IMG/VR virus record: IMGVR_UViG_2563366969_000006
Direction: 5' to 3' (one strand)
Source of the DNA: a virus
Taxonomy: Duplodnaviria > Heunggongvirae > Uroviricota > Caudoviricetes
DNA: 19,074 bases
Shown one piece after another: positions 1 to 17,859 of the stretch. The translations under genes and the position numbers were made by a program. Position 1 is the first letter of the stretch. Every line of letters begins with the position of its first letter. Below the pieces are notes generated by a model. The model was not told where the DNA came from and did no database searches. It saw nothing but the letters and a program-made list of their open reading frames with translations.

Positions 1-625
1 TTATTTACAAAAAAATGGGGAAGTATTACGGCGATTGCGAAAAGTCTGAAGCGCTTGAATTAAGATAATATAGAAAATCAGATACAACAAAAATGGCAGG
101 TAGATGATGTTAAGATAAATTGGAGCGGGCGAAGGGAACAATACAACATCACACAAGGCCAGTAATAGCGCGAATCCTGCGAGTTCTAAAATCAATTCTA
201 TACACATTTCTATACACATTTATCCCTCGCTTGAGGGTTATGCGTCATCGTTATCGGCTATCTCGCTGGTGGATGATCACGGATGGCCTGATATCTACAG
301 CCGCCTTAAAAAGCTGTACCCGACAAGCATTACTGCGTATCGGGTTCGTTCGCTCTTTCTACTCGTGGCAGATGAGTTTATCGGTGTGATTTTATCGGGC
401 GAGGGTATTGTATCAGGCATCCCCTTTTCTATGCAGATTTGCATAGTTCCGAATGGTGGCGTTATGGAAGCCTCCCATATCAGCATCATGCCCACCAGCG
501 TGAAGTATTTTTTTATTTCGCGGGTGTAAAAATTTGACGAGGCGGGCGGTCCCATAAGCAATGGATTGTAGGGATTTCGCTCCCCCCCTCCTGAATGCAA
601 TTTTTCGTATATATATACAAAACAG

Positions 626-781
626 TGCGGGTTATGCGGGTTACCGGGTTATCTTAGTATGCTAACTATTTTTTGTTCTTTAGTATCAATATGTTGCAAA
701 ATACACTGTTCATTATTCAAGCATCACATAACCCGCAAAACATCCCAAATAACCCGCAAACGCCCCAAAATAACCCGCAAA
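626..781. repeat. Iteron cluster A (putative crr-like or second origin): three tandem direct copies of (T)GCGGGTTA at 626-652, an AT-rich spacer, then three inverted copies ATAACCCGCAAA at 728-739, 749-760 and 770-781 with exact 21-bp phasing
   Basis: Seen directly in the sequence; same 9-mer as cluster B at 11233-11358; degenerate copies (CATCCCAAA, CGCCCCAAA) interleave at about 10.5-bp spacing. Confidence 0.7.
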
Positions 782-1448
782 CACATTGCTGAAAGCAGGG
801 GTTGATAGTTCCACTGGTGCCACAGAACGGCTGAATACGGTAACTGTTGCTGGTGGTCTGTCCTGTTGTCGTTCCAGTCTCATCAAATTGAGAGGCAAGA
901 CAAAGTGTATTTTTGCACTATAGCCAAAGCCTCATAAAACAGAGTTACCCCCACAGGCTGGCAAAAACCATTACCCAACGCAATTAAGTGCGTCAGAATC
1001 GATTACAGCGCGTTCCTGTGGCACGTTGTTGCCGTTCTCAGCAGTGAAAGGAGAGCGTGAAAAGCTCATATCTATTACTGTTGAGGGGTGTAGCGGCATA
1101 TATCGCGAATATCCACGCCCTTAATCCCGATACCGTCACTACGCATTGAGATCCACCAGAAGATTAAGATAGTTTTACCTGAAATTATCCAAATAATTGT
1201 TTTAACTGATTAATTTTTCGAATATCTATTGTTAGGGAATAAATCATCAGATACACCATAAAACGACATCTTTCAGGGTGTAGAAGATGCAAAGCCGATA
1301 CTGAAGAAAAGACAAAGAATATGAATGGCTGGCCACACGATGGAAGGATTGTCCATTGAAGGATCAATCCTAATGGTATAAGTATTAATAAAACCGTGCA
1401 GCGTGCTTTTTTATCTGCGAATTCCCGCCCGGGCGGCGGTGGCATTCG

Positions 1449-1476
1449 TTAAAAACAAGGCCGCGAAAGCGGCCTG
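1449..1476 (-). terminator. Rho-independent terminator closing the large operon
   Basis: On the minus strand, stem GGCCGC / GCGGCC (1459-1474) with a GAAA-type loop, followed by TTGTTTTT, 8 nt after the stop of the 104-aa gene. Confidence 0.6.
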
Positions 1477-1483
1477 TGACATG

Positions 1484-1798
1484 TCACGATAGTTCCGTTT
1501 TGTTGAATTCAATTATATCAAGGTCAGAACTTTCGTAATCCTTACCGAATAAAGCAAAACATATCGCGTCAAGTTCTCTCTTATGTTTGGACGCCCGATC
1601 ATAATTACCACCCCAACAGCAAATGAATCCACCAAGTACTGCTGATTCAAAAAGTAATGATGCTGCATCAATATGTCTGAACCAGGAGTCTATAAGTAAA
1701 GCAGAGAGTGATATTAATGTTCCCCACCCGCCAATCCTTCTCCATTTCTCAGCTTCATATTTAAGAGAAGCAATATATTCAATTTTATCTCTCGTCAT
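1484..1798 (-). CDS. Small membrane protein (104 aa, two predicted transmembrane helices), last gene of the large operon; function unknown
   Basis: ORF with TGATG stop-start overlap to the upstream gene; two hydrophobic segments (IGGWGTLISLSALLIDSWF and ASLLFESAVLGGFICCWGG); lower GC than upstream genes. Confidence 0.6.
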   Translation of the reverse strand: MTRDKIEYIASLKYEAEKWRRIGGWGTLISLSALLIDSWFRHIDAASLLFESAVLGGFICCWGGNYDRASKHKRELDAICFALFGKDYESSDLDIIEFNKTELS

Positions 1799-4554
1799 CA
1801 GTTCCCCACCGCCTTTCCAAAATCCGGTGCTCTACGTGGCGCAATAGCACCCGGTTCCCACCAACTCGTTATGTCGAACTCCCGTTGCGCGCGGTCCCTT
1901 ACTCGATCATTGTAACCAGGGTTTGCCATCTCCTGAAGTTGTTGCAATATCAGGTGATTGGTTATCGCTTTCGCATACCACAGGTTTGCGAATGGGGTGA
2001 TCATGCGGGCTGTTTTCAGTGCATCGGCACCGAATGATGTTTCTTCACCCTGTAGAGCCTTCTGTGGGTTAGTAATCAGTAATTTTGTTAACTGCTCTGC
2101 AAAGCTCAACACAGGGCCACCCATAGTGGCACCGATGCTGGAGCCATATTGCGTATGGTCCTGGAAAATAAAATCACCGTAGATACCGAACGAACCACCT
2201 TTCAGTAAAGCCTGAACCCATGTGGTTGGTTTTGTCATATCCAGCGGATCATTACCATTTAACAAACTGTTCATCTGGATCGCAAACATACCAGCAAGAG
2301 TTGTTCCCCCGATATATGAGGCCAGAAATTTAATGGCCGGAACGGTGTCCAAATCCCGTGTTCTGTTAACAAGTTGCCGAAATCCAGCAAATGGGGTTGT
2401 TTTGAAGAGCATGAAGCTCTTCATTAACTCGCCAGCATCATCACGGGCATATGTATCAATACCCGTAGCGGTGGTCACAGCATTGGTCATCTCACCGTGC
2501 GTAATTCCCAGCAATTTCTGGGCTGCTTCAGCGCGTGCATTACGAATCATGCGCGTGATGGTCTGCTCAGCCTCAGCGTCGAATGCTTCTTTCATCCGTT
2601 TCAGGCGTTCTGGAGGGAGATCTCCAAGGGCTGCCAGTGCCTTTTCACTCCCGGCACGAATCCGGGTAATACGGTCTGCCATAATGTCGGCTATTACGTT
2701 ATCGGGCACAGCGTAAATCGCGTCTGGCGTCATCCCCATATGCCCGGCAGTAGTCATCGGCCTGAGTTCTGCCGCTGCCATGATGGCCCAGTCCTCATTG
2801 CTCCATCCCTTGTTAGCCAGAATGGTTTTATCGGTTCCTTTCATATCGTCCAGCGTCTTAAATTTTCTGGTCAGCTCGCCAATGTTTTTGTACATCAGGA
2901 GACCAAACGACGCTTTGTTTGCGCGGTCCATAGCGATCAGCCCGGACCACTTCAGTGTCTTCTCTGCGAACCAGCCAGTTATGCCGCGAGACAAGTCAAA
3001 CCCGCCCATTTTCGAAACCACAGCAGCATGTGAATCCACCAGCAGACCGAGTTCAGCATTCGCCTTTTTGGCATCTCCACTAAACAGGTTTTTGATAGTG
3101 TTAACGGAAAGCCGCATTCCACCACGGGTAAAGCCCAGCGCCTGCGCATTTGCCCGCATAATTGCCTGGTCGCTGGTTGCTGTCAGTACGCTGGTGCCAA
3201 GCATGGCGCTGGTCATCAGGTTACGCAGACCACCAACTGCTGAAGAGAACACACTCGATGAAGCGACACCATTTAGGCCAGCCATTGAGTTGAACATACG
3301 GGCAACTAATTTGGCCTCATCCTCCATTTCTTTTTTGCGTTTCCCGCCTGTTACTGCGCGCTTATAGATGCGATCCAGTACCAGGGAAAAGTTTCTTTCG
3401 GCGTCCGGACCAAAGGCTTTAACGACGCCCAAATCCCTGGATGATGATTGCAGGTGCGACATCATCACCCCCACCAGCGGCTGCTGAGTGTATCGTTCCA
3501 TATAGGCGAAGTGTGACTGCGCATCCTTGAACGCCATCACCCTGTGCTGAGAACCACGGCTCTTTATTCCTCCGGCTCCCATAAATGTACCAGGCTCAAT
3601 TTTGTTTGCCCCATCAGTGGCCTTCGTTTCAAAGATCGCTTCCAGTGCCTGACGGTACTCGACGTCATTCATAATGCTGCCGTCAGGATTAACGTAATTG
3701 CTGCGATCCTGCGTGTTGTAAGCGTCATCAACCCATTTCTGGCGGGCAAACTCAATCGGTGGCTGGCGACCTGAAAGACGTGCTGTAGCTTGCTCTGCCA
3801 CTGGTAACGATGCCAGCCATTCTTCGCGCCCGGCATTGCGAATAAGGTCAGCATCATCCACATATGGCGTATGCCAGTCTTCTCGCAGGCCTATGTCAAA
3901 GCCATTGTCGTTCATCTCATGACGAACACGGCCTGTTACATCCTTCCAAATCTGTGCAATTTTCTTCGCCAGGGGATTCCCGGTATCTTCGCCATATATT
4001 TCTTTCAGGATCTGGAGTTGTGCAGACTTTGCCGCCTGCCTGTCGAATACACTCCGAAACCGCTGCTCTCCAAGCGCCCTGCTCTGCTCGAAGAATTTGC
4101 GGACGTCATCACCTGCTTTTAGAAGTTCAGCACTGAGCTGACGGGACCAGTCCTGATATGCCCCAATTGCAAGTTCTTCAGCAGAAGTAACGGAGATATC
4201 AGCTTTGTCTCTCGATCGTCGGCCAGCAAAAATAAACTGCTGCAAATTAACAGGTGTCTGCTGATCAGGCGGGATGTTAGCATCGAGAGTGTCAGTAATT
4301 TTACTGATGGCGATCGCATTCTGGGCAACACGCTGTCTTTTCTTGTACACATCATGAACCACACGCTGGCGTACCAGTTCTGCTGCATCCATGTATGTTT
4401 GAGCATCAGGAATACCACTTTTGCCTTCTTTGGCATTCTTTCTGTGCACATGCTGCACAGCTTCTTTGATACGATCTTCAATATTTTTCAGCTCATCAGC
4501 CTTTGGCTGGCGACCAAGTGTCTGCGCAATAGCTTCCACACATGCCTGTTTCAT
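1798..4554 (-). CDS. Large hypothetical protein (about 918 aa), Gly/Ala-rich hydrophobic stretches, no NTPase motif; possibly internal-virion/ejection-like
   Basis: Long ORF. Likely start is the ATG at 4552-4554, preceded by GAGGAA and in a TAATG overlap with the upstream stop, rather than the unsupported ATG at 4575. No Walker A found on reading. Confidence 0.75.
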   Translation of the reverse strand: MKQACVEAIAQTLGRQPKADELKNIEDRIKEAVQHVHRKNAKEGKSGIPDAQTYMDAAELVRQRVVHDVYKKRQRVAQNAIAISKITDTLDANIPPDQQTPVNLQQFIFAGRRSRDKADISVTSAEELAIGAYQDWSRQLSAELLKAGDDVRKFFEQSRALGEQRFRSVFDRQAAKSAQLQILKEIYGEDTGNPLAKKIAQIWKDVTGRVRHEMNDNGFDIGLREDWHTPYVDDADLIRNAGREEWLASLPVAEQATARLSGRQPPIEFARQKWVDDAYNTQDRSNYVNPDGSIMNDVEYRQALEAIFETKATDGANKIEPGTFMGAGGIKSRGSQHRVMAFKDAQSHFAYMERYTQQPLVGVMMSHLQSSSRDLGVVKAFGPDAERNFSLVLDRIYKRAVTGGKRKKEMEDEAKLVARMFNSMAGLNGVASSSVFSSAVGGLRNLMTSAMLGTSVLTATSDQAIMRANAQALGFTRGGMRLSVNTIKNLFSGDAKKANAELGLLVDSHAAVVSKMGGFDLSRGITGWFAEKTLKWSGLIAMDRANKASFGLLMYKNIGELTRKFKTLDDMKGTDKTILANKGWSNEDWAIMAAAELRPMTTAGHMGMTPDAIYAVPDNVIADIMADRITRIRAGSEKALAALGDLPPERLKRMKEAFDAEAEQTITRMIRNARAEAAQKLLGITHGEMTNAVTTATGIDTYARDDAGELMKSFMLFKTTPFAGFRQLVNRTRDLDTVPAIKFLASYIGGTTLAGMFAIQMNSLLNGNDPLDMTKPTTWVQALLKGGSFGIYGDFIFQDHTQYGSSIGATMGGPVLSFAEQLTKLLITNPQKALQGEETSFGADALKTARMITPFANLWYAKAITNHLILQQLQEMANPGYNDRVRDRAQREFDITSWWEPGAIAPRRAPDFGKAVGN

Positions 4555-6614
4555 TATGGGTTCCTCAAGAAGCACGCTGCTGCTACAGAATAAACCTTCG
4601 ATTCGTTCTGGACTGTCTTAATCTGTTCATCCAACTCAGCCAGGAGATCAGAAAGTTTTGTCGGGTTTCCGGTTTCCGGGTGAGCTATAGTCAGCTCAGG
4701 ATTGGCAACAGCCATGTCCCTGGCAGCCATAAGGTCATAGCTGTTGGATGAGAGAACCTGCCCTGTATCTGGATCAACGCTGATGTCCCCTCTGTGTTCA
4801 CCAGCCGATGAGAAAGCACTTTCAGCACGAGGGACAGGCGATTCACTAATTGGCTCTGATGATGTTTCGTATCTGACACCATTTTCTTCAAAAACCTTTT
4901 GTATTTCATGGTATTGCTCTTGGTAAGTATCAGATATATCTGATCGCAATGGACCATCAAGCCCTCGCGCCATCCCCCCAACATTTACAGGCTGACCATC
5001 ATTAAGTTGCCTGTATGCTTCATCCATGGCGTCAACATGGCTGTTGATGCTCTCATTGCTGGTATGAAGCACTGGTGACGATTCAATATCGTAATGAAGC
5101 CCCTCATTCAAAATGTGGGCTGCATCAATATCGCTTGGTTTTATTCTTTCCCTCGCCCGGATACCAAAAACTTTTTCTACTGCGGCTTCCAGTTTCATAT
5201 TGCGAAGACGCATACTTACGAGTAACCGTAACTGCTCAGGTGTAACGGTTCCAACCTGAATACCACTGTATCTGAATATATAGGCTTTAAAACCTGAAAT
5301 AATTTTTTCCCATGATGAAACGCTTGTCTTTAGAGATGGATTTACTGCATGTGCGGCAACTTCTTCAGCGTACAACCACTCAGGATATGTTTCAGGGTAC
5401 TCACCCCTTTTCTTATATTCATAATATTGTGACATCCCATATGCAAATTCAGGATAGTCAGAATGCTTGTTTGCAGATTTAAGTACAGCATTAGCTAGCT
5501 TTCTGGCCTTCCAGTCAGGGTAATGGCGCTGCTCAAGATGAAGCGCCTCGTGATGAAGGGTTTCTAACAGTTCTTCATGGTCTTTTAATCCATTAATATT
5601 TATTCTTATTATTGGTTCTTTTCCGGAAGCTACTGTCACATGACCTTTATTCAGAAGTATTTCTCCATCACTATTTTTTATTGCTGGTTCATTAATAAGT
5701 TCTATTACTCCTGAATCAGATAAATCACGAACCATTGACTCAATGTTACCATCAGGAGATTGCTGATAATGTTCACCAAAAGTTGATTTTATTTCTTCTG
5801 CAGAAATGTTCGACTCTGTACCATCATGGTTATTATGGGTAGTCAGGTGATGAACGCCACCAAAGACCCCGCCTAAAACGGCATCGACTAACATCGCCTG
5901 ACCGTCAAATACCCGGTACTGTTTTGCCATCTCCGTGTAGCCTTTTTCCTCCAGTGTTGCGCCTACTGAGTAACGGTTCAGTCCACCGAATCCGGTGTTG
6001 ATTGCCACACCTGAGGCAATGCGCGTTGCCAGTGTGGTGCCGACGGCAGCGGGTAAGGCCATACCCACAGCATTGAAAAGGCTCTGCTGCGTTGCCAGGT
6101 TACGCGCTGTAGCCTCGTCTACTCCCTTCCCTTTAAAATCCTGATAGGACTGCTCATACGTAGAACTGAAGGCTGTAGCAGCGCCGATGAGCGGACCACC
6201 AAACATAGTTGTTCCGATTGCAGGAACAAATTTACCAAGCTCATTTAATACCTCAGCCGCCATTCCCTGGCTGCCTGCATCAGGCTTCACATAGCTGCGG
6301 GCATCCTGTAACTGTTTTCCGATCGTGTCGTATGTATCATTCAGTGTTTTGTCAGCATCAGGGAACATCTCCCGAAAAATATTAACTGTCGGTGCCACGT
6401 CTGCGGTAAATGCCGGATCGCTAATCAGACGCTTGCTGAATCCGACGGCAGACTGCGCGAGACCGAGAGCCCCCTCCGCCACGCCGCTCAAAAGTGCAGT
6501 ACCTGAACCCTGGAAGGGAGTCGGATCGTAGTCTTCTGGCCTTGCTGGGTTGGCAACTGTTTTGTCGTCAATCCATGCCTGACCTTCTGGAGCCAAAGAA
6601 AAAACATCAGACAT
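4554..6614 (-). CDS. Large hypothetical protein (686 aa) with an HExxH (HEALH) zincin-like motif and Gly/Ala-rich hydrophobic region
   Basis: Long ORF; TAATG overlap with the upstream 843-aa gene; GAGGG ribosome-binding site; ETLHHEALHLEQRH encoded around 5534-5560; no P-loop. Confidence 0.75.
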   Translation of the reverse strand: MSDVFSLAPEGQAWIDDKTVANPARPEDYDPTPFQGSGTALLSGVAEGALGLAQSAVGFSKRLISDPAFTADVAPTVNIFREMFPDADKTLNDTYDTIGKQLQDARSYVKPDAGSQGMAAEVLNELGKFVPAIGTTMFGGPLIGAATAFSSTYEQSYQDFKGKGVDEATARNLATQQSLFNAVGMALPAAVGTTLATRIASGVAINTGFGGLNRYSVGATLEEKGYTEMAKQYRVFDGQAMLVDAVLGGVFGGVHHLTTHNNHDGTESNISAEEIKSTFGEHYQQSPDGNIESMVRDLSDSGVIELINEPAIKNSDGEILLNKGHVTVASGKEPIIRININGLKDHEELLETLHHEALHLEQRHYPDWKARKLANAVLKSANKHSDYPEFAYGMSQYYEYKKRGEYPETYPEWLYAEEVAAHAVNPSLKTSVSSWEKIISGFKAYIFRYSGIQVGTVTPEQLRLLVSMRLRNMKLEAAVEKVFGIRARERIKPSDIDAAHILNEGLHYDIESSPVLHTSNESINSHVDAMDEAYRQLNDGQPVNVGGMARGLDGPLRSDISDTYQEQYHEIQKVFEENGVRYETSSEPISESPVPRAESAFSSAGEHRGDISVDPDTGQVLSSNSYDLMAARDMAVANPELTIAHPETGNPTKLSDLLAELDEQIKTVQNESKVYSVAAACFLRNP

Positions 6615-9145
6615 TATTCAACCCTCACGACAATAGCTTTATTGGTTCTGGGATCTGTTGCCCAGCGTCCGCTACCATTTACAAGCCGATACCGGTTATT
6701 GCCGATATTAACTGGCGTGAAATTTGACACTGCATTTACGTTAAGTCCGGCATCTTTCAGTGCTTGTTTCGCAGATGTGGTATAGCGATCTTTGAAAGTA
6801 GATTTATCCATGCCAAAAGGCATTACAACGTCGCCGCCATTAAAACCATTGTATATACCGCCAGTAGCATACTTCACGGCATCAGCTACAATGTCTGTAT
6901 CAGGCATACTGGTTCTTACCGTAGAGGCATCACCAGATTGATAAGCTATTCCTGCGTAAGCGGCTTTGAAAAGGCTATAACTGATCTGGCGTAACTGCGG
7001 GTTACGGGCAAATGCATTACCTACCTGTTCGTCGAAAGCGTCTTTCATCTTATCTTCGCTCGGCAACTGTACCGGAGTTATGCCCGCATTCTTCATGGCC
7101 TTCGTCGGATTCAGTAGTTGGTCGCCGGAAAGAATAACCTTTGCAACGTCGTACTTGTTCATCGTCGGCTTATACCCGATGAACTGACTATATGGGATCG
7201 TCGGCCTGGTGTTGTCGTACTGGTTATCCGGCGTGCCCAGCAGCAGCGCAGAATAGGCTGTTGCCGCACTGTTCGGAGCAATTACAGATGCCACCTGCCG
7301 TATTGCTGGCGCAGGCAGCTTCTCCCCCATGCTCTGCAACAGTTTAATTGTCTGGTCAACGTTCTGAGTGCCGCGCACCTGCTGTGCCAGCGCAGCCGCC
7401 TCTTCACTGTTGAGGAGTGGGGCATTAATTCCCAACGCGCGTAAGCTTTCCTGCGACGAGAAACGGTTAGCCACCTCGGCAGTGATGTCGTCAGGGTTGT
7501 TGCTGGTGATCGGCTTATAGGCTCCGATTTCCACCGCTGCACTAAACGGATTATTCTGCCTCTGGGTTATTACCTTCGTGGCTGCCGCCGATACCCGGTC
7601 GAATAACTCCGCACGAGACGCATACCCCTCCCCTGTCTCACCAGTATCCGGGCGTAATTGCTCAACATATGCGGTAATGCTGCTTGTCGGCATGTTGCGG
7701 AAAGAGCCTATATACTGTCCGGCGATCTGCAAATTTCTGAACTCGGTATATCGCAGGTTTCCTTCTCTGACACCATAAGCAGCAATGAACTCACCCTCAC
7801 CAGGCGGGTTAGGAAATTCAACGCCACGCATATACGCAGCCGTTGCATCGCGAACCCGGCTTTCGAGCATCGTTCTATATTCAGCCTGCTGCTGTCTGGC
7901 TAATGCATCCGTCTGTCGCAACACGCTGGCCTGATCTGATTCACTTAAAGCATCGAACCAGGCTACACCGGTATAACGTTTATTTTTTGTCGGTAGCTGA
8001 GAAAGCCCCAGTGCGGCACTAACGCCAGCGGCCAATTGCTGATCACTGTACGGCTGACTGCCTTGCTCATGATGAATAATTGCTTTGCACAGAGATTTCA
8101 GTGTGTCAGGATTTGATGCGTCAAGCGGCTGGTCAGGAGTTACACCGAGCTGAGCACATACTGCCCGTATATAAGCATCAGTTTTATTATCATCACTGGC
8201 CGGTGCCCAGCGATTAATTATTTCGCTGATGGTGTCATAACCCTGACGCTGATACGACAGCAAATTGCGACCAAGCGCGCGAATACCGTGTTCAGGGGTT
8301 TCGAATTTGGCAAAGCGACCATCATCACCAGTCTGCCCAACCCACGGATTAGTTTTGCTGTATTCAAGATTGCCGGGGTTATTGTTGCGTATACCGCGGG
8401 TACGATCGGAAGAGCCACTATCTGCTACAGCACGGCGAGATCCAGCAGCAGTATCGCTTAACTCGCCATTTTGCTGTCTTACCTGAAGATAGTTTGCTCC
8501 AATAGCATTTTGAGCAGTTGCTTTTGCTGTTGCTTCTTTAAACTCGATTTTCTTGGCCTGGATTTGCTCGTCGCTCCAGCCATGCGCAATACCGTAATCC
8601 TCAATTTGCTGGAAAGTTTGCGTATTAGCCAATATGTATGCTGCGTTGTCGCCATATAATGCTGAGGCATTTTTACCATTATTCAGCAGTGTCGCCTGAA
8701 ACTGGCCTTCTTCGTAGGCATTTATTTGCCCTATCTCGTACCTCCCGGCCTGCGTAGCGAACTGAATACGCTGCTGCTGCGCCTGCTGCATGAAAGCATT
8801 ACGAGCCTGTTCATCCGGCAGCGACATAGCCAGTTGTTCGATCTGAGCATCAAACTGCTGTGTATACTCATGGCCTTTTCCAATAGCATTTTTCCCTTTC
8901 AGGTTAAGCAATCCTGTTTCAGGATTATTCAGCAGATCACTGCCTGTCTGACTGAGTTTAAGGGATGCCTCCTGAATCAAGGCAATATTGGCACGCTGTT
9001 TTGCCTGACCAAAAACATCAATTGCCTCTGCCCCTGCCCGAACAAAAGCATCACCAATACCTGGCTGAGAAAACGTCTGCAAGCCTGCTGACTGAACTCC
9101 ACGGCTCTCAACCTGACGTCCGGATACTGTTGGTACGACTGGCAT
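6614..9145 (-). CDS. Large hypothetical protein (843 aa), Gln/Ala-rich, with a conserved-looking block GIRNNNPGN...W.G...G.FA.F (possible peptidoglycan-hydrolase-like or virion-associated domain; unverified)
   Basis: Long ORF with a strong AGGAGG ribosome-binding site 6 nt upstream of the ATG; motif block encoded around 8155-8395; no P-loop. Confidence 0.75.
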   Translation of the reverse strand: MPVVPTVSGRQVESRGVQSAGLQTFSQPGIGDAFVRAGAEAIDVFGQAKQRANIALIQEASLKLSQTGSDLLNNPETGLLNLKGKNAIGKGHEYTQQFDAQIEQLAMSLPDEQARNAFMQQAQQQRIQFATQAGRYEIGQINAYEEGQFQATLLNNGKNASALYGDNAAYILANTQTFQQIEDYGIAHGWSDEQIQAKKIEFKEATAKATAQNAIGANYLQVRQQNGELSDTAAGSRRAVADSGSSDRTRGIRNNNPGNLEYSKTNPWVGQTGDDGRFAKFETPEHGIRALGRNLLSYQRQGYDTISEIINRWAPASDDNKTDAYIRAVCAQLGVTPDQPLDASNPDTLKSLCKAIIHHEQGSQPYSDQQLAAGVSAALGLSQLPTKNKRYTGVAWFDALSESDQASVLRQTDALARQQQAEYRTMLESRVRDATAAYMRGVEFPNPPGEGEFIAAYGVREGNLRYTEFRNLQIAGQYIGSFRNMPTSSITAYVEQLRPDTGETGEGYASRAELFDRVSAAATKVITQRQNNPFSAAVEIGAYKPITSNNPDDITAEVANRFSSQESLRALGINAPLLNSEEAAALAQQVRGTQNVDQTIKLLQSMGEKLPAPAIRQVASVIAPNSAATAYSALLLGTPDNQYDNTRPTIPYSQFIGYKPTMNKYDVAKVILSGDQLLNPTKAMKNAGITPVQLPSEDKMKDAFDEQVGNAFARNPQLRQISYSLFKAAYAGIAYQSGDASTVRTSMPDTDIVADAVKYATGGIYNGFNGGDVVMPFGMDKSTFKDRYTTSAKQALKDAGLNVNAVSNFTPVNIGNNRYRLVNGSGRWATDPRTNKAIVVRVE

Positions 9146-9241
9146 TAGTAACCTCCTATTTTGAATCGGGAGTCAGAATTCATAAAACCTGAGTTAGATA
9201 ACATTGGCGTCCCTCTGCTTTGATGCTGTACCAGCGATTCA

Positions 9242-9448
9242 TTACTCACCCCCCGATGCAAAACCATTCTGATTAAGCCAGGCGTTTACGGCATGTCTGA
9301 CAATCTGCGCCACGCCTGGTAATGGCTGATCAGGGTGATTGTTCACATGGTCGATTCTGTACTGCTTAAGGCGCATCACGGTCTGTGCATCCAGATGAAC
9401 GGAACCACCTCTGACATCGCCTGTGTTCAGGTCGTTAATACAATTCAC
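9242..9448 (-). CDS. Small hypothetical protein (68 aa) leading the large operon; possible regulator
   Basis: ORF just downstream of a candidate promoter and upstream of the 843-aa gene; the GAGG ribosome-binding site is unusually close to the ATG, so the start is uncertain. Confidence 0.4.
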   Translation of the reverse strand: MNCINDLNTGDVRGGSVHLDAQTVMRLKQYRIDHVNNHPDQPLPGVAQIVRHAVNAWLNQNGFASGGE

Positions 9449-9480
9449 AGCAATTTCCTCTTACTGACTAAACTATGCAC

Positions 9481-9509
9481 ATTATTGATCTGAAAAAGTG
9501 GTAGATAAA
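9481..9509 (-). promoter_or_regulatory. Candidate sigma70 promoter for the large operon (minus strand: -35 TTTATC, 17-bp spacer, -10 AATAAT)
   Basis: Hexamers read from the sequence between the upstream terminator and the 68-aa ORF; not experimentally supported. Confidence 0.3.
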
Positions 9510-9547
9510 CATATTTCTATCACAAAAACAGATTGATTGATTTCAGC

Positions 9548-9573
9548 CAAAAAAAAGCCGGATTGCTCCGGCT
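9548..9573 (-). terminator. Rho-independent terminator separating the replication/SSB/ProQ block from the large operon
   Basis: On the minus strand, stem AGCCGGA / TCCGGCT with a 4-nt loop, followed by a run of 8 T. Confidence 0.7.
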
Positions 9574-9813
9574 CTGTGCTTACTTCTGGTAGTTACGCCA
9601 TACTGATTTCCCGATCCCATCTATCCCCATTTCTTTTTCAGTGCGTTTAAGCGACCGTTTCAGGTCTTCTAAATTATCCGGTTGCTTCGGTGGCCTCTGC
9701 GCCTTCCTGGAACATTCCAGTCGTCGCATTGATATGTAATACCGTTCCTTGTCAGTTCCCCAACTGCATTACTTCACCCCATCGCGCCGCCGCTCTTCGG
9801 TACAGGGTTTTAG

Positions 9814-10230
9814 TTAGCCTCCGACTCTTCCGTAGTGCTGTTCTGGTGGATTCACATAGCCCCTTTCTTGCAGGTATTCGCGAATATCAGACATCAGGAG
9901 ACGGTTAACCGTGCTCTTGTCTTTTCTCCGGTAAAGGCGTCTGGTGATCATGAAGTAGTTAGCAATGATCTCCGGTATATCCCTGACGCTGATACATGCT
10001 GTATGCTGGTCAATAGCTTCAATCATCTCTTCACGAGTTACAAAAGTCTGGCGTAAACGAGTGATCACACCATGTACATCTGAATGATCATTTATACGCT
10101 TATTTTGGCGCTTCGCGCTCTCGACTGTGACACTGACAACAATGTCAACTCTTTGTTTTTCCGCAATTTCATCCACAATGTGATCACCTGCACGGCGACC
10201 ATGTGCGTGATCATTTCTTACTATTTCCAT
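9814..10230 (-). CDS. Hypothetical protein (138 aa), His-rich N-terminus
   Basis: ORF with GGAGGAG ribosome-binding site; overlaps the 3' end of the ProQ/FinO gene by 20 nt; no family recognised. Confidence 0.5.
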
Positions 10231-10708
10231 TCATCTCCTCCAGTAGTTTTCCTGCGTGCGTCTGTTGTAGTGGTGTTACCTCGCCGCACGGCTGGCCTTT
10301 CAGGTCGTAACGCGCGCCACCAGCTACCAGGGCGCGGTAATAGCGCGGAGTCTGCACATAACGCGCCAGCGTTGCGCGTAGTGTTCCCTGTCCGAGTGAA
10401 ATACCTCTCGCGGCAATATCCTGTATCAGGTCGTCAAATATCCCCACCTTAAGCGGCTTAGGTGATTCCTGGCTGAATAATTCAGGCCATAGCTCAATAA
10501 GACGGTTAACGCGTCTGCGGTTTTTACGCTGCTGTTTGGTCATACGCCGCCGCGGTGTTGCTCCTGTGAGCTTCTGCTGTGTGTTCTGGTTATCTGGCAT
10601 CACTTTATGCGCCGATGTGGTTTTATTCTGCTGCTGCGCCGCCTGTGCTGTTTTCTGCGGCGTGCCGTAAATGCCCTTCGGTTTTCTGTTTATGGTCAGC
10701 TTTGTCAT
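10211..10708 (-). CDS. ProQ/FinO-family RNA-binding protein (165 aa) with a basic N-terminal extension
   Basis: The segment [60 protein letters not shown] aligns by eye with the ProQ N-terminal FinO domain (LKIGIFQDL...LRSALRLYTSSWRYL...RVDLDGNPCGE). Confidence 0.7.
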
Positions 10709-10744
10709 GCCTTCCCCTGTAATTACTCTGTTCGCTGTTGTGAA

Positions 10745-11170
10745 TTAAAACGGTATCCCGTCCCCGTACGGATCATCGTGCTGGCCTGTCTGTTGCTTTG
10801 CCCTGTTCAGTGCATCAGTAGCCTGCCCCTGCTGGCCTTTTTTGCCGCCCGGTCGCGCCGTTCGCGCACTGATTACGCTGTCTGCGATAACCTGCCATCC
10901 CTGCCTCGTTTCGCCGTTCTGGCCCGTCCACCGGCTCACCTGCATGTTACCGGCCACGCTCACCAGTTCGCCTTTGTGGTGTTTTGCCAGTGCGTCAGCC
11001 TGTCTGCCAAACGCCAGGACGGATAACCACATCGTCGCCGTTCCGTCATCTGTCTGATTGCATGGAAGGGGGACCGCCATACTCGCCATCGCCATTTGTG
11101 TGCCCTTGCTGGTGGTCTTTAACTGCGGGTCAGCCACCAGCCGCCCGTAAGCTGATATTTGCGCCGTCAT
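10745..11170 (-). CDS. ssb: Single-stranded DNA-binding protein, divergent short form (141 aa)
   Basis: OB-fold-like N-terminal region, Gly/Gln-rich linker and an acidic C-terminal tail ending DDPYGDGIPF, comparable to the SSB DDDIPF tip; GGAGAA ribosome-binding site. Confidence 0.7.
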   Translation of the reverse strand: MTAQISAYGRLVADPQLKTTSKGTQMAMASMAVPLPCNQTDDGTATMWLSVLAFGRQADALAKHHKGELVSVAGNMQVSRWTGQNGETRQGWQVIADSVISARTARPGGKKGQQGQATDALNRAKQQTGQHDDPYGDGIPF

Positions 11171-11232
11171 GCTGTTTGTTCTCCGGTTTTAACGTGATAG
11201 TTACGCTTGTTTACACTCTTACAGTGAAATTT

Positions 11233-11358
11233 TGCGGGTTACAATCGCACATTTGCGGGTTATAACTGCCGTTTTGCGGGTTACGTGCGGGTTATTAATT
11301 TCCTTTTTAATCATTCAGTTAATTAACTTATGCACAGGATAACCCGCATAACCCGCAA
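11233..11358. repeat. Iteron cluster B (putative origin): TGCGGGTTA at 11233-11241, 11254-11262, 11275-11283 and 11286-11294 (21-bp phasing), AT-rich spacer, then inverted ATAACCCGCA copies at 11339-11358
   Basis: Seen directly; lies immediately 3' of the primase/helicase-like gene; same 9-mer as cluster A. Confidence 0.75.
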
Positions 11359-11380
11359 CTTTTTACCTCACACAGGGAAG

Positions 11381-13507
11381 TTAATCTTCTGCTTCAGGCT
11401 GGAACATCAGCACGTAAAAAATATGTTGCTTCCCGCCAATCCTGCCGAGCGCCTTTTTCTTGTAACGGCGGTCGCCTCCCGCTTCCAGCATTCCGGCTGC
11501 ACTCAACGCGCGGGCAAAGTGAGACGGATTAAATCCCTGTGCTATCTCACCCTCAAACACATGCGGGAACGTGTAAAAACGGAACTCGTCATCTTCGTTT
11601 CTGATACTCCCCTTTCTGTATCCGGCAAGGTCTTTAATCGGTAAATCACGCTCGTCGCTGTTTGGATAGGGAAGGTATCGACTGAACCCGAACGACGACA
11701 AAAACGCCTCAGCCTGTTCAACCATCTGTTTAAATTCCCTGTTGCCCGTGCCGAATTCCTTCACCCAGGCATTAAAGTTATGCTGAACTGCATCACGGCA
11801 CGCCTGAACATCCCAGCCTGTAACATGACCGGAAAGCACAAGCGCGGCCTCCAGTACGGCGAATCTTTCCCCCACACGGTGAACCTGCTCGCCGTAGCTC
11901 TCCGGTATCAGGTTGCGCCACCGCTCGCGACATGCCCTTACCGCGTCCTTTGCCTCCTGCTGGTGGCCTGCCAGCCATTTAACCCACTCACGACCTGCCG
12001 CCCCGTGATTTTCTGTCCAGGCATCTTTTAACGCGTCTGCGTGCGCCTTTCCGGTGCTGTATTCGTGAAACTGCGAGGCCTTTTCCATCGGTACGTTAAG
12101 CAGACGGACAAGCTGCCCCGCTTTAATTTTTATCCCTTCCGTTTTGAGGAATGTTTCAACGTCCATTTCTCCGGTGCTGATTGCCACCGTGCGCCAGTGT
12201 TTTATCTCCCTGTTGCCGCCGTCCTTCGCCCCCTGTAATTTCCCGGAACCGTTAAACAGCGTATAGGCTGACGTGGACACCTCCCGTGCGTTTCCGGCCT
12301 GGCCTATTTCATCCAGGGGTAACAGCCCGTCATTATGTGCTTCGGCCTCGTTGGCGATACCTAACGCCGTTCCGTACCAGGTCAGCCGTTGCGCGTCCGG
12401 CTCTCCCCATAAACTTGATGCAATGTTCTGTGTGGTGGTTTTACCTGCTGATGATTGCTCAAAAAGATGAACCCCGAAGCCGTCAGCACCCACCAGCCCG
12501 ATTAATGGTGCAGATAGCGATACCGCCACACCCAGCATCATGGACGGATTACCACCAGCCAGCCGTGCCACGGTATCGCGCCAGCCCTCCGCTGTTCCCG
12601 CCACGGAATAGCCATTAACAGCGGCAGTTTTTCCGGTAAACAGGATGGGTTTCTCTGATTCACCGATGATCGAACCATCCGGCATGATGTACGCACCAAA
12701 ATGCCACCCCGTTGTTGTGCTTAACTGCCATTCCTCATGGTTTCCGCTTAACTGCATCCAGTCAGCCAGGATAGCCCTGTATTTGCCGTTGGTCGTCACG
12801 TTAAGGCCGTGGTCTTTCAGCAACCGCCAGCCGTCACGGTCACCAATGCCTCCGCACGGGACCGCCATTGTAATGACCTCATGGTTTGCTGGTTTTTTCC
12901 AGCGCATCACGCGGTAATGCTCTTTGCCGATTGTTCCTGTTCCCAGTAGTTCAAGCGGAGAACATAACCACGTCTCAGGCCGGATAATTTCGCCTGACTG
13001 CTTGTCCACTTTGGGCGTTACCCAGAAAACACCATCGACGCGACTTTCAACACGAGGCTTTAATTCGTCATCATAATTTCCGGTGAAATTTGTCTTCGCC
13101 GGAAGGTTGATCACCAGACTGTTACCGCGTTCCGCATCATACTTCAGTCCAGCCATGCGCGGAGTCCAGTCCTCCGGCTGCTGATCAACAAAGCTGCGGT
13201 AGCAACGCGCCTCCTTCACACCCGCCACTGCAAGCAGTGTCGCTATCTGTGTAAGGTGCTGCTCTGATATTTCACCAGCACGATAAATGCGCACGTAATA
13301 GCGTCCTTTGTCGATGATTTGCGTGTCTGCCAGACTCGCCAGTTGTTCCGGTCCAAGAATAACTGGATGTGTATCATCTGCCGCAATATGCTTTCCGGCC
13401 CATTCGCTCCACTCTTTCGCATGTGCCCAGGCATCACTACCCGCAAAGATAATCACCTCCGTCATTTTGTCTTTCGGCTGGTGCTTTAAATTCGGTGCGC
13501 GTTTCAT
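11381..13507 (-). CDS. Replication protein, primase/helicase-like (708 aa; P4 alpha-like role, DUF927-type P-loop helicase domain)
   Basis: Walker A-like SSAGKTT and Walker B-like LLPLDE in the central region; ATGA start-stop overlap with the upstream gene; adjacent iterons. Confidence 0.65.
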   Translation of the reverse strand: MKRAPNLKHQPKDKMTEVIIFAGSDAWAHAKEWSEWAGKHIAADDTHPVILGPEQLASLADTQIIDKGRYYVRIYRAGEISEQHLTQIATLLAVAGVKEARCYRSFVDQQPEDWTPRMAGLKYDAERGNSLVINLPAKTNFTGNYDDELKPRVESRVDGVFWVTPKVDKQSGEIIRPETWLCSPLELLGTGTIGKEHYRVMRWKKPANHEVITMAVPCGGIGDRDGWRLLKDHGLNVTTNGKYRAILADWMQLSGNHEEWQLSTTTGWHFGAYIMPDGSIIGESEKPILFTGKTAAVNGYSVAGTAEGWRDTVARLAGGNPSMMLGVAVSLSAPLIGLVGADGFGVHLFEQSSAGKTTTQNIASSLWGEPDAQRLTWYGTALGIANEAEAHNDGLLPLDEIGQAGNAREVSTSAYTLFNGSGKLQGAKDGGNREIKHWRTVAISTGEMDVETFLKTEGIKIKAGQLVRLLNVPMEKASQFHEYSTGKAHADALKDAWTENHGAAGREWVKWLAGHQQEAKDAVRACRERWRNLIPESYGEQVHRVGERFAVLEAALVLSGHVTGWDVQACRDAVQHNFNAWVKEFGTGNREFKQMVEQAEAFLSSFGFSRYLPYPNSDERDLPIKDLAGYRKGSIRNEDDEFRFYTFPHVFEGEIAQGFNPSHFARALSAAGMLEAGGDRRYKKKALGRIGGKQHIFYVLMFQPEAED

Positions 13508-13806
13508 TTCTTGCCCCTGAATGCGTTAATCATGTTCTTTATTACCTGAATATTTGCCCGTGCTTTCTCTTTACTGGTGGGCTTACTGCGTGGTGCTGCA
13601 CATACCAGTGAAAAATCACGCCGGAACTGATGAACGGGCATCACACAGTCATAGTCGTACCCTGCGCGGCGGTATGTAATGTGCCGTTCATACACGGAAT
13701 TAATAACCACGCTGTCGCCATATTTATCCCGGAAAATATCCCCGATCCTGATTTTCGGATGAGTCTGTCCGCTGGCATTTAAGCCAGTAAATTTAATCTT
13801 CTTCAT
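13504..13806 (-). CDS. Hypothetical protein (100 aa) directly upstream of, and coupled to, the replication gene
   Basis: ORF with ATGA overlap to the primase start; occupies the position held by epsilon/orf151 in the P4 operon (position analogy only). Confidence 0.5.
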   Translation of the reverse strand: MKKIKFTGLNASGQTHPKIRIGDIFRDKYGDSVVINSVYERHITYRRAGYDYDCVMPVHQFRRDFSLVCAAPRSKPTSKEKARANIQVIKNMINAFRGKK

Positions 13807-13808
13807 GT

Positions 13809-14066
13809 TTATTTCCCGGTGTGAGGTTCTTCTTTATATTTATGGGCTAACAAATCTGGTAATTGCCTGTATTTATCCTCGGCAATATATTCAGAATAAT
13901 CGACAGCACTGTTCAGTATATCTAACGCCGTTTCATGCTCCAGATTCGAAACTATAAGGAACGTTGCTACTTTTAGCATATTCGCGATATGCAAAAGAGC
14001 ATCAATTTCATTTTTTGGCGCTTCACTGAATTTTTGCTCCAGAAGAATAAATCGTTCATCACGCAT
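13809..14066 (-). CDS. Hypothetical protein (85 aa)
   Basis: ORF with AGGGGGAA ribosome-binding site; start overlaps the stop of the upstream 67-aa gene by 8 nt. Confidence 0.5.
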   Translation of the reverse strand: MRDERFILLEQKFSEAPKNEIDALLHIANMLKVATFLIVSNLEHETALDILNSAVDYSEYIAEDKYRQLPDLLAHKYKEEPHTGK

Positions 14067-14262
14067 AGTATTCCCCCTGACGGATGCGAGCAGTAAATAC
14101 CATCACGCAGCCAGCCGGGGATTGCTGACGGGCTTTCTGTTCGCTGGTGGCCTCGATGTGGATTACGCGCGGTTGTGCCGTGCTCAGGGCGATAAAACGC
14201 CAGATGTATTTATTCAGGTTGTGCGAGTCCCGCCCTTGCGGGTGTGTGGTATGATTTAACAT
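14059..14262 (-). CDS. Hypothetical protein (67 aa), first gene of the replication operon
   Basis: Internal ATG at 14260-14262 preceded by GAGGT; this is the C-terminal part of an implausible 386-aa ORF in the track. Confidence 0.45.
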   Translation of the reverse strand: MLNHTTHPQGRDSHNLNKYIWRFIALSTAQPRVIHIEATSEQKARQQSPAGCVMVFTARIRQGEYYA

Positions 14263-14343
14263 AGCTACCTCGATACGCTTTCTATCGTTGGTGGTTAGAC
14301 GCCCTGCATGTGTTGCGAGCACTGCGGGGCGTTGCTCTTTCAG

Positions 14344-14425
14344 GTGTATTTCACCTTTGCTTTTTAATTTACTCACTGGTGAAATACACTTCAAGCCTTT
14401 TTTTATCATTTTTTTTGCGTATACT
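14344..14425. promoter_or_regulatory. Divergent promoter/operator region: perfect 12-bp inverted repeat GTGTATTTCACC (14344-14355) / GGTGAAATACAC (14378-14389); candidate minus-strand promoter (-35 TTGAAG, -10 TAAATT) and plus-strand -10 TATACT (14420-14425)
   Basis: Inverted repeat seen directly; promoter hexamers are by-eye matches to consensus. Confidence 0.5.
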
Positions 14426-14455
14426 GACATACACCAATTTTTAGGAGATCCAGAA

Positions 14456-14635
14456 ATGGCAACTGGTGCAAAGAACGCAAAATCACAAATGACAACTGTC
14501 AGAATCCCACATGAAGTAATGGATGATATTGAGCAACTTAAAGAACCTGGCGAAAGTACCGCTGGTTTTTTAGTTACTGCCGCAAAAGGCGAGATCAAAC
14601 GCCGCCAGCGTCGCAAGGCCAAAGAGCAGGAGTAA
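14456..14635 (+). CDS. Small putative DNA-binding regulator (59 aa), possibly ribbon-helix-helix-like
   Basis: ATG at 14456 with AGGAGA ribosome-binding site 8 nt upstream; N-terminal TTVRIPHEVMDDIEQL resembles a beta-strand-helix RHH start; only plus-strand gene block in the island. Confidence 0.5.
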   Translation: MATGAKNAKSQMTTVRIPHEVMDDIEQLKEPGESTAGFLVTAAKGEIKRRQRRKAKEQE

Positions 14636-14692
14636 CCATCACCAGCGCCGTGGTGCGGTGAACTGTGGCGCACAGGGTTACAGGTATCTACG

Positions 14693-14890
14693 ATGACTGA
14701 CAAATCATTAAAGAAATTATCCTCATCCAGGAAAAAACAACGCAAAAATGCGGTAAGCGAACAAGAACAGGAAAGATTTGCGCCATGTGCGTTTGTCCTT
14801 GAGAAGTTCTTAAAAGAGTACAGGCGCACAAAAATGGAATCGCATACCTGGAAAACATCGCAGTATGGCGATGCTAAAGAGCAGGAATAG
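14693..14890 (+). CDS. Small basic hypothetical protein (65 aa)
   Basis: ORF downstream of the 59-aa gene, weak ribosome-binding site; shares a duplicated 3' end (AKEQE-stop) with it; followed by a terminator. Confidence 0.35.
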   Translation: MTDKSLKKLSSSRKKQRKNAVSEQEQERFAPCAFVLEKFLKEYRRTKMESHTWKTSQYGDAKEQE

Positions 14891-14980
14891 CCCACCAGCA
14901 AGCCAGCACACTGATCACATTGCCCACCAGCCGCAAATCTGGCATTGTTGGCGATGCGTTTGATTTCCTTTGTTCCCACT

Positions 14981-15008
14981 GGCGACCTATCCCGGTCGCC
15001 TTTGTTTT
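14981..15008 (+). terminator. Rho-independent terminator for the plus-strand small-gene unit
   Basis: Stem GGCGACC / GGTCGCC with 6-nt loop followed by TTTGTTTT; convergent with the Bro-N gene. Confidence 0.65.
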
Positions 15009-15058
15009 GCCTGTTATCCAGCAACGGGGCGCTTTTTCTTTCTGTAACGTTCGGATCG

Positions 15059-15616
15059 TTACACATTGCTTTCACCCTCCAGAAAATCAGGCTGATATTT
15101 ACGCCATAGCGCCCGCTCTTCTCGTTCCAGTGCATCTTTTGCCTCTTTGCATTGCTGTAACCTGTAACCGCGTTTGCTGGCTTCCTGTTGATATGCAGCC
15201 TGACGTTTACTGAAATCATTCAGCATGGCAAACGGAACACCATAACCCCCCGTTTTGCGGATTGAAGGAATCACCTCGCGGAATACCCAGTTACTGAAAC
15301 GGTGCGCAAATGTGCCTGGTGTGGAAGCTTTACGGCTGCGGACGATCAGTTTGTAGAAACCTGATTCAGAGACAACATTCCAGCTTCTGGCACCACCACG
15401 CTTACCGGAATGCCCCTCGGTTAAAGCTAGGGTCATTACCTCGTCGTTATCCAGAACTGAAACAGCATCAGTAACATTGCTGATTTCCTGCGCAGCACAC
15501 ACATCAGCGCCAACAAACCACGGCTCGCCGTTGATACTCACTATGCGCACCTGAATGTCATCGAATTTAATGACAGAGATTTCAGTGCGCCCGGCATAAA
15601 AGACAGGTTTACGCAT
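15059..15616 (-). CDS. Bro-N domain protein (185 aa), putative antirepressor
   Basis: N-terminal region (F.D..VRIVSINGEPWFVGADVCAA ... SGFYKLIVRSRKASTPGTFAHRFSNWVFREVIPSIRKTGGY) matches the Bro-N pattern from memory; GGAGGT ribosome-binding site; start overlaps the stop of the upstream gene. Confidence 0.7.
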   Translation of the reverse strand: MRKPVFYAGRTEISVIKFDDIQVRIVSINGEPWFVGADVCAAQEISNVTDAVSVLDNDEVMTLALTEGHSGKRGGARSWNVVSESGFYKLIVRSRKASTPGTFAHRFSNWVFREVIPSIRKTGGYGVPFAMLNDFSKRQAAYQQEASKRGYRLQQCKEAKDALEREERALWRKYQPDFLEGESNV

Positions 15617-16433
15617 GGCTGCTCACCTCCATGCGGCGGGCTAACCAGCGTTGCGAAAGGCGAATTAATTCAGCTTTCCGCTGGTGGTAGTCCAGGCCTA
15701 ACTCAATCAGCGTGATATTGCTCTGCTCAAGGTAAGAAAGGTGCTCAAGCTGCAACACGCTCATGTGGTCGCGTGGTTCACCTGTGATGCCGTTCGCCTG
15801 CGCCCACTGTTTTGCAGTCATGCCACCCAGCACGATACGCGCCAGCATATTAGCTTCCGTAGTGTAGTGGTGCTGGAGCGTGTTTTTACCCAGTTCAGCC
15901 CGGTACGCCTCCAGCGCGGCACACATTGGCTTAAAGTAGCTGGCTACGGTGATACGGGCTTTCAGTTCCCGGCGTAACGCTGCGGAACGTACAGGCGCTA
16001 CCTTGTGTAGCTCCTCCTCGCATTTGATGAAGTACTGACGAACGGCGCGGCCCTGTTCGGTGCGTTCGATCATTGCCAGTTCTTTCGCCATTCCGACACT
16101 TAACAGATAGTCTTTACCGGGTCTGCCAGAGTGCTTAATCTTGCTGTAAGCCTCGCCATTCGGGCTTTTCCCCAAATTTGGGGAAATTGTTTTATGGACT
16201 GAGTAATCGTACCCAATGGTGAAGTCATATTCAGAGATACGATCAGTGATCCATGTAGAGAAGTCTTTTCCCACGCCCAACGCTTTGTGTAACGCTTTTG
16301 CGCTAACAACAGCGGCTTCACGCCCGCCAATAACGCCGGAAATAACCGGGATAATTTCGCCGAAATTTTGCAGATTCTGGTTTTCAGGCCGAACAAAGCC
16401 CTGCCCCTGTACGGGCGTTTTTCGCAGTTTCAT
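15609..16433 (-). CDS. AntA/AntB-like antirepressor family protein (274 aa)
   Basis: N-terminal segment (AVVSAKALHKALGVGKDFSTWITDRISEYDF) resembles the AntA domain; GGAG ribosome-binding site 5 nt upstream of the ATG. Confidence 0.55.
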   Translation of the reverse strand: MKLRKTPVQGQGFVRPENQNLQNFGEIIPVISGVIGGREAAVVSAKALHKALGVGKDFSTWITDRISEYDFTIGYDYSVHKTISPNLGKSPNGEAYSKIKHSGRPGKDYLLSVGMAKELAMIERTEQGRAVRQYFIKCEEELHKVAPVRSAALRRELKARITVASYFKPMCAALEAYRAELGKNTLQHHYTTEANMLARIVLGGMTAKQWAQANGITGEPRDHMSVLQLEHLSYLEQSNITLIELGLDYHQRKAELIRLSQRWLARRMEVSSHA

Positions 16434-16508
16434 AAAAACTCCGCTATCGAATTAAGTTACTTTTTATTTGCTAGTGGATAGCTTGGGCAATAACCCGTAG
16501 CTATTTAA

Positions 16509-16706
16509 TCAGGCAGCCGTTCCGCGTGATTCGGCAATACGCTGATTGATCCATTCGTCAATTTCACTTTCAACGAAAGCAATCGCTCGCGAGCCAATTT
16601 TAACTGATGCAGGAAATTTACCTTGCCCCATAAGGCGATAAATCCATGCCTTGCTATATCCAGTTCTACGCTGAACTTCTGTTAAACGAATAAGCGTATT
16701 TGACAT
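16509..16706 (-). CDS. alpA: AlpA-family transcriptional regulator / excisionase-like protein (65 aa)
   Basis: Size, position next to a P4-type integrase, and pattern (LTEVQRRTGYSKAWIYRLMGQGKFP...ESEIDEWINQR) characteristic of AlpA. Confidence 0.8.
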   Translation of the reverse strand: MSNTLIRLTEVQRRTGYSKAWIYRLMGQGKFPASVKIGSRAIAFVESEIDEWINQRIAESRGTAA

Positions 16707-16775
16707 CTATTTACCTCATAACGTCTACTCAATTTGACGAGGTAATCATGGCACAGAAATAACGAATATTTTCAT

Positions 16776-16918
16776 ACCCTCAGGCCTAATGGTTACCGGA
16801 AGGAAATTAACCCTAAGGGTGATGGTAATCGGGAGGAAATCTACCCTAAGGGTGATGGTAAAATTGACGGGGAAGATAAAAAAATACCCTCAGGGTAACA
16901 GTAAATCACCCTCAGGGT
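16776..16918. promoter_or_regulatory. Array of four palindromic operator-like sites ACCCT-N-AGGGT (16810-16820, 16843-16853, 16886-16896, 16908-16918) plus a partial site at 16776-16784, in the alpA upstream region
   Basis: Seen directly; sites 1-2 share the longer unit ACCCTAAGGGTGATGGTAA; located in the 227-bp intergenic region 5' of alpA. Confidence 0.55.
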
Positions 16919-16933
16919 ATGCGGTATGGTGCG

Positions 16934-17737: not shown

Positions 17738-17859
17738 ACCTCAGCGTCCTCTACTGTAGTGGCTGTGCCAGCCCGTCGAGGTATACGGTTTTTCGGGAGC
17801 GACCCTAGACACAGCTTTTTCTTTCGTCGCTCAAAGTCTACTACTGTATACTCAACCAG

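Follow-up and report, generated by a model that had tools for sequence, protein, structure and literature searches.

A predicted zincin-like metallopeptidase module in the central slot of an epsilon15 gp16-type ejection protein encoded on an island without capsid genes

Zincin-like metallopeptidases are the commonest domain of phage polyvalent proteins and have been sorted into 12 clades (Iyer, Burroughs, Anand, de Souza, Aravind, 2017; PMC5512222). Their core consists of an N-terminal helix, a three-stranded sheet, the HExxH helix, a variable insert and a second helix with a zinc-binding Glu (PMC5512222). Here we describe a module of this kind in a 686-amino-acid (aa) protein encoded by a DNA stretch of 19,074 nucleotides, referred to below as the window (IMG/VR virus record IMGVR_UViG_2563366969_000006, Caudoviricetes). 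The metallopeptidase domains of polyvalent proteins and the window module, in its predicted topology, are alike in having a helix and sheet before the HExxH helix, a variable insert and a later Glu helix, in proteins that travel (or, for the window, are predicted to travel) in the virion. The carriers are quite different: polyvalent proteins are several thousand residues long with many domains, whereas the window carrier has 686 aa and one enzymatic domain and is found in an island without capsid genes. The scaffold of the carrier is that of epsilon15 gp16 (NP_848224.1) and its homologues in Uetakevirus phages and prophages, with which it shares the N-terminal 265 aa, the C-terminal 207 aa (74 to 83% identity) and the gene order. 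The centre of those proteins has no HExxH and consists of a Pro/Ala/Glu-rich linker, alone or combined with a coiled coil, while the window protein has a 229-aa segment with the zincin module in this place. Anthrax lethal factor-like (ATLF, MEROPS M34) zincins, including the Pro-Pro endopeptidases PPEP-2 and PPEP-3, are also among the closest known systems. The ImmA/IrrE (M78), CapP and ArdC C-terminal metallopeptidases show no significant sequence or profile match to the module and differ in domain partners and biological context. Polyvalent-protein metallopeptidases are already known as a kind; what is new here is an unmodelled clade in a new carrier architecture.

The gene for the 686-aa protein is located at 4554 to 6614 on the minus strand (open reading frame (ORF) list and translation). 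The original prediction had noticed a HEALH motif in this protein, and translation of the minus-strand ORF shows it at aa 355 to 359 (5538 to 5552, minus strand), with two predicted zinc-ligand His and the predicted catalytic Glu. The peptide around it, ETLHHEALHLEQRH, extends over aa 351 to 364 (5523 to 5564); the coordinates first given for the peptide (5534 to 5560) cover HEALH and cut off the ends of the peptide. No second HExxH is present in the nine largest ORFs of the window (~5,700 residues). From the composition of the 686-aa protein, 0.046 HExxH motifs are expected by chance, and the motif was present in 4.5% of 20,000 composition-preserving shuffles. Since this chance occurrence is not negligible, HEALH by itself is weak and unconvincing evidence. 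It becomes meaningful because it is conserved in distant homologues.

These homologues are segments of giant injected proteins from unrelated phages. Weak tblastn matches in phage genomes (E ~ 3e-3) were confined to the C-terminal ~60 residues of the module. The targets range in length from 1,500 to more than 4,800 aa, carry the annotation "DarB-like antirestriction" or "PLxRFG", and come from ~60-kb phages of Ralstonia, Klebsiella, Serratia, Pseudomonas, and Ochrobactrum. The segment GIQVGTVTPEQLR (aa 451 to 463; 5226 to 5264, minus strand), with the family-specific C-terminal signature G.Q.G..TP.QL, provided this first tblastn link from the module to polyvalent proteins. Manual reading of the giant proteins upstream of the match found a short sheet region, LLHE(M/A/L)FH, ~55 to 65 residues, EE(F/L)(G/A)AYA, and then G.Q.G.VTP.QLR. 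A six-sequence alignment was collinear over ~190 residues, and 52 IMG/VR loci gathered with this alignment yielded 45 distinct module sequences. All 45 (and 29 of 29 sequences in alignment A4) have the H, E, and H of HExxH, so conservation of the motif among homologues, which had been named as a way to refute the metallopeptidase proposal if missing, was found in this distant family. Likewise invariant (45/45) are the C-terminal signature residues G, Q, G, T, P, and Q, as are both Glu of the pair Glu417-Glu418 (5361 to 5366, minus strand) in AEEVAAHA (aa 416 to 423) and the Ala at +3 from this pair. Overall, the window module is only ~21 to 26% identical to the other family members.

A profile of the 44 other modules matched the window module from end to end. 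This leave-one-out profile, in which the window sequence was left out, was run on all 127 six-frame pieces of the window and matched aa 289 to 477 (~190 residues; 5184 to 5750, minus strand) at profile positions 3 to 191 with 41.7 bits and E = 7.6e-13; the next best piece had E = 1.4. Independently, the pre-built phrog_10089 ("DarB-like antirestriction", 4,647 positions) matches the module at its positions 3427 to 3612 (E = 7e-4) and also matches all 29 family members tested. Because both profiles match, homology of the module to a segment of the DarB-like/PLxRFG giant virion proteins is established. The suggestion that the motif belongs to the type of module described for injected polyvalent proteins of phages is supported by this homology. 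In the giant proteins the module is a conserved, single-copy part that adjoins LPD3, LPD39, GNAT, and methyltransferase domains. For example, the giant protein of Klebsiella phage ZX1 has methyltransferase and GNAT domains upstream of the module and LPD39 downstream, and that of Ralstonia phage GP4 has LPD3 upstream. There is an annotation gap here, as Pfam and NCBIfam miss a conserved module (HExxH...EExxA(Y/H)A...GxQxGxVTPxQLR) in giant proteins of many ~60-kb phages.

A zincin also needs a third zinc ligand downstream of HExxH, and the invariant Glu-Glu pair is a candidate for it. The pair is located 58 to 59 residues past His359 and falls, after the insert, within a predicted helix in both structure models, although confidence in the models is low. 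The position of Glu417-Glu418 fits the "second C-terminal helix with a glutamate" of the published core (PMC5512222). Both models have the same predicted topology of N-terminal helix, three strands, HExxH helix, insert, and Glu helix. This order matches the polyvalent metallopeptidase core and thus counts for the zincin interpretation. The model of P0006, a typical family member, built with a 7-row alignment, reached a predicted local distance difference test score (pLDDT) of 64.7 and a predicted template modeling score (pTM) of 0.64. The structures listed with the fold evidence are Certhrax, the N-terminal domains of anthrax lethal factor and edema factor, PPEP-2, and PPEP-3, together with a "predicted zincin-like metalloprotease" (3e11), IrrE/PprI, EcxA, MMP-12, YbeY, Wss1, CapP, and ArdC. 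We regard the fold evidence as moderate and consistent with a zincin. A zincin-like active site, as originally proposed, is thus supported by the conserved HExxH in a predicted helix and by the third-ligand candidate; the named peptidase families gave no significant profile match and the fold evidence goes no further than moderate.

The carrier was identified by the sequence on both sides of the module. In tblastn the 686-aa protein shows 82% identity to epsilon15 gp16 over 66% of the query in two pieces, and it matches PHROG 1145 with E = 2.3e-136. The N-terminal scaffold domain (aa 1 to 265; 5820 to 6614, minus strand) is 83% identical to epsilon15 gp16 residues 1 to 277, and the C-terminal scaffold domain (aa 480 to 686, 207 aa; 4557 to 5177, minus strand) is 74% identical to residues 428 to 634. 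The ~200 central residues are unrelated to epsilon15 gp16, and HEALH is found inside this replaced centre. The N-terminal block is the part common to the proteins of SPN1S, phiV10, and Pseudomonas and Liberibacter phages in tblastn. Rich in Gly and Ala, this block has several hydrophobic segments, with Kyte-Doolittle windows scoring above 1.2 that begin at aa 41, 129, 178 to 187, and 235 to 240, and is presumed to interact with membranes. The gene upstream (6614 to 9145, minus strand) encodes an epsilon15 gp15-type ejection protein of 843 aa with a transglycosylase-like region (phrog_992, E = 9.7e-290), which also matches endolysin and tail-injection-transglycosylase PHROGs. The downstream gene (1798 to 4554, minus strand) encodes an epsilon15 gp17-type virion structural/ejection protein (phrog_684, E = 2.5e-295). 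The order gp15-gp16-gp17 in the window is the order in epsilon15. By scaffold homology and synteny the 686-aa protein is an epsilon15 gp16-type ejection (internal virion) protein, in agreement with the earlier description of the carrier as otherwise structural or membrane-interacting.

We compared the central slot in ~60 close homologues of the N-terminal domain (75 to 89% identity), mostly from ~40-kb epsilon15-like genomes. Three forms were found: a Pro/Ala/Glu-rich linker of 64 to 72 aa in proteins of ~521 aa, a linker plus coiled coil of ~175 to 179 aa in proteins of ~635 aa (the epsilon15 type), and the 229-aa segment with the zincin module in proteins of 686 aa. Only contigs of at most 20 kb, corresponding to the island, had the last form. 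The module is not present in epsilon15 gp16 or in the ~60 close gp16 homologues, which have the linker or coiled coil instead. Conservation of the motif was thus not seen among the closest full-length homologues, from which the whole module is missing. A complete epsilon15-like prophage of E. coli (strain ECE228) has a 634-aa version of gp16. The slot tolerates changes in length and non-globular content. Because ~60 homologues have only a linker or coiled coil in the slot, the protease is an addition to the scaffold and not one of its requirements. These sequences show that a small podophage ejection protein can hold predicted enzymatic cargo in its central slot.

Module DNA is found once per genome in 37 of 5,426 complete E. 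coli genomes, always with at least 99% identity. Two copies of the element were compared. They are at different chromosomal sites and carry different integrases; one is at tRNA-Gly beside the ETT2 island and the other between yicC and dinD. Between the two copies the whole gp16-type gene has 18 synonymous and 1 non-synonymous codon differences, and the module has 3 synonymous and 0 non-synonymous. The corresponding numbers are 16 and 3 for the gp17-type gene and 10 and 3 for the primase gene. These counts indicate that the gp16-type, gp17-type, and primase genes are under purifying selection and are not decaying. The gp15-type gene is far more divergent between the island copies (102 synonymous and 63 non-synonymous differences), which suggests mosaic recombination or diversifying change in the transglycosylase-bearing gp15-type protein.

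We consider it probable that aa ~289 to 477 constitute a genuine zincin-like metallopeptidase module (gluzincin type, polyvalent clade) that was recombined into the gp16-type slot and is active, with a target in trans favored. The module is most likely an active, virion-delivered zinc endopeptidase. The mosaic architecture of the 686-aa protein would have arisen when a module otherwise found in giant polyvalent proteins was recombined into the length-variable slot between the N- and C-terminal scaffold domains. By analogy with epsilon15 and the podophage literature, the protein would be packaged with its gp15- and gp17-type partners in the head of a podophage and, on infection, expelled through the tail into the envelope or cytoplasm of the recipient. 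If the chemistry of known zincins applies, His355, His359, and Glu417 or Glu418 would bind zinc and Glu356 would be the general base that activates water to cut a peptide bond. A trans target, such as an envelope or defense protein of the host or a protein from a competing or helper phage, appears somewhat more likely than self-processing because in full epsilon15-like phages the slot of this scaffold holds only a linker, so that the scaffold needs no cleavage. A protein of 686 aa is also a tractable system in which to ask what the widespread polyvalent-protein metallopeptidases cut, themselves or host targets.

Several observations weigh against this interpretation. No curated zincin profile of Pfam or NCBIfam was significant for the window module or for 29 family members, and no PDB relative was found by sequence with the single sequence or two profiles (only noise was returned, e.g., mTOR FRB and BCL-2 binders). 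For the window module itself the model was poor (pLDDT 50), and the AlphaFold prior for HExxH may bias such a model toward zincin geometry. The window module is the most divergent member of the family, and several sites with conservation of at least 90% in the rest of the family carry other residues in it: Glu in place of the Gly after HExxH, Arg in place of a Trp, His in place of the Tyr of EExxAY, and Asn in place of a Glu. Modified specificity or loss of activity may be the result. Finally, the host element has no capsid genes, so that incorporation into a virion would depend on a helper phage.

The other profile and sequence searches were in line with a clade that no Pfam or NCBIfam model covers. 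Neither the module nor the whole protein gave a relevant Pfam match at E ≤ 10. The Pfam model for polyvalent-protein metallopeptidases, named MPTase-PolyVal, was not matched by the window module at this threshold either, and the module is not placed in that family. M48, SprT/WLM, and ImmA/IrrE had been suggested as families to search; none gave a significant profile match, and SprT-like and WLM each matched one member with E = 0.12. Below threshold among the 29 family members there were matches to Peptidase_M1 (two members) and to DUF6782, WLM, and SprT-like (one each). Of the Pfam, NCBIfam, and PHROG profiles run on these 29 members, phrog_10089 alone was informative. An exhaustive phmmer search of the module against 1.84 billion representatives returned only a 74-aa fragment of the same protein. 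A word-indexed search of 5.8 billion proteins recovered no match with the module and just 6 fragments with the family profiles, which left the alignments for structure prediction very shallow, and tblastn of the module against plasmids gave no match. A family-profile scan of genome contigs recovered typical members only, from alpha- and beta-proteobacteria, Azotobacter, and others; none of them was intermediate between the family and the E. coli variant. Foldseek with the family model found no PDB match at E < 0.6, and PADLOC had no match for the ejection trio or its neighbors.

Other interpretations of the module were considered against the same evidence. An active zincin might serve in self-processing and cut its own carrier or the co-ejected gp15- or gp17-type partners, in the head or after ejection. 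Autoproteolytic domain release has been argued for polyvalent proteins (PMC5512222), and a processing role was proposed for their metallopeptidase domains and for phage P1 DdrB. Every other family member is a single module between unrelated domains of a giant protein, as would fit a processing protease, and the window module is placed exactly between two separable scaffold domains. The autoprocessing of polyvalent proteins is itself only a prediction, however, and the ~60 gp16 homologues with a linker or coiled coil, from complete ~40-kb phages, indicate that the scaffold works uncleaved. We therefore think self-processing unlikely, though still a serious competing reading. It is distinctly improbable, in our estimate, that the zincin-fold domain is catalytically dead or has been repurposed as a spacer, binding, or encapsidation domain. 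The module replaces non-enzymatic linkers of 64 to 179 aa and departs from the family at several near-invariant positions, and there is a precedent in phage N4, where the region of the virion RNA polymerase with the metallopeptidase domain is needed for encapsidation (PMC5512222). Loss of function is opposed by the retention of all three HExxH residues and both Glu at ~21 to 26% identity to the family, and by the lack of non-synonymous changes in the module between the island copies. The replacement of Tyr by His also argues less for inactivity than it may seem: Tyr and His are both able to stabilize the oxyanion in thermolysin-type enzymes, and the window substitution is a swap between these two residues.

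That HEALH is a chance motif in a structural protein, with no enzymatic meaning, was also considered. The frequency of HExxH in shuffled sequences and the lack of a match to a curated peptidase profile are what such a reading would predict. It does not explain why HExxH and the downstream Glu-Glu pair are invariant in 45 distant homologues over a collinear alignment of ~190 residues. The 45/45 conservation, alignment A4, and the leave-one-out profile effectively refute this reading, and we give it almost no credence. Among all of these, an active zinc endopeptidase delivered with the virion and acting in trans remains our preferred interpretation of the 686-aa protein.

The element that carries the gene may be more interesting than the motif itself. 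The whole window (1 to 19074) is an integrative element of ~19 kb and not a prophage; the element was also delimited at 15001 to 34074 of locus L002 and 6095 to 24748 of locus L061. Its genes encode an integrase, HTH, AntA, BRO-N, Icd-like, and DUF4222 proteins, a DUF927 primase, SSB, ProQ/FinO, PerC, and the gp15-gp16-gp17 trio. Genes for terminase, portal, capsid, gp14, and tailspike were not found in the gene set of the window. The same gene set in the same order is present at the second chromosomal site (yicC/dinD) with a different integrase. With an integrase, a primase, three ejection proteins, no capsid or tail genes, and two chromosomal sites, the island may represent an undescribed satellite strategy, and from its gene content we regard it as a candidate for a phage satellite with ejection proteins of its own. 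A more specific proposal is that the ~19-kb element is a new type of satellite that parasitizes epsilon15-like podophages with its own gp15-gp16-gp17 set in place of capsid remodeling, the gp16 zincin being a satellite-specific weapon co-delivered with the DNA. We put this forward as a speculative and rather doubtful proposal. If it were true, the zincin could cut helper or host proteins, for example to inactivate co-packaged helper ejection proteins or to remove an envelope or defense barrier. A literature search on satellites that carry ejection proteins found nothing pertinent.

Among the 5,426 E. coli genomes the gp17-type gene is present in 54, and none has two copies. In 37 of these genomes the copy is at least 95% identical to that of the window, and in the other 17 it is only 77 to 81% identical. 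One divergent copy was inspected (strain ECE228) and is located in a full epsilon15-like prophage. Because no genome has two gp17-type copies, the island and its candidate helper prophage never co-reside among these genomes. A 138-aa protein of the island (9814 to 10230, minus strand) matches the 'terminase' PHROG phrog_1711 with residues 5 to 68 (E = 2.2e-10), and its C-terminal part matches the N-terminal region of the profile for the anti-repressor Ant (phrog_63). This protein may act like a small terminase or redirect packaging, as is seen in satellites.

In NZ_CP148401.1 (flanks of the window at L002 1 to 14887 and 34239 to 34312) the island is inserted at a tRNA-Gly gene and adjoins a degraded ETT2 type III secretion island with many frameshifted sct, epr, and org genes. 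The left end of the island is unannotated and has an AT-rich palindrome (597 to 628) that adjoins iteron-like repeats (626 to 652 and 725 to 782). Two tandem copies of the repeat TGCGGGTTA precede a third, degenerate one, and ~100 bp away there are three copies of its reverse complement ATAACCCGCAAA at 21 bp spacing. These repeats may serve as an origin, in packaging, or in the binding of a regulator.

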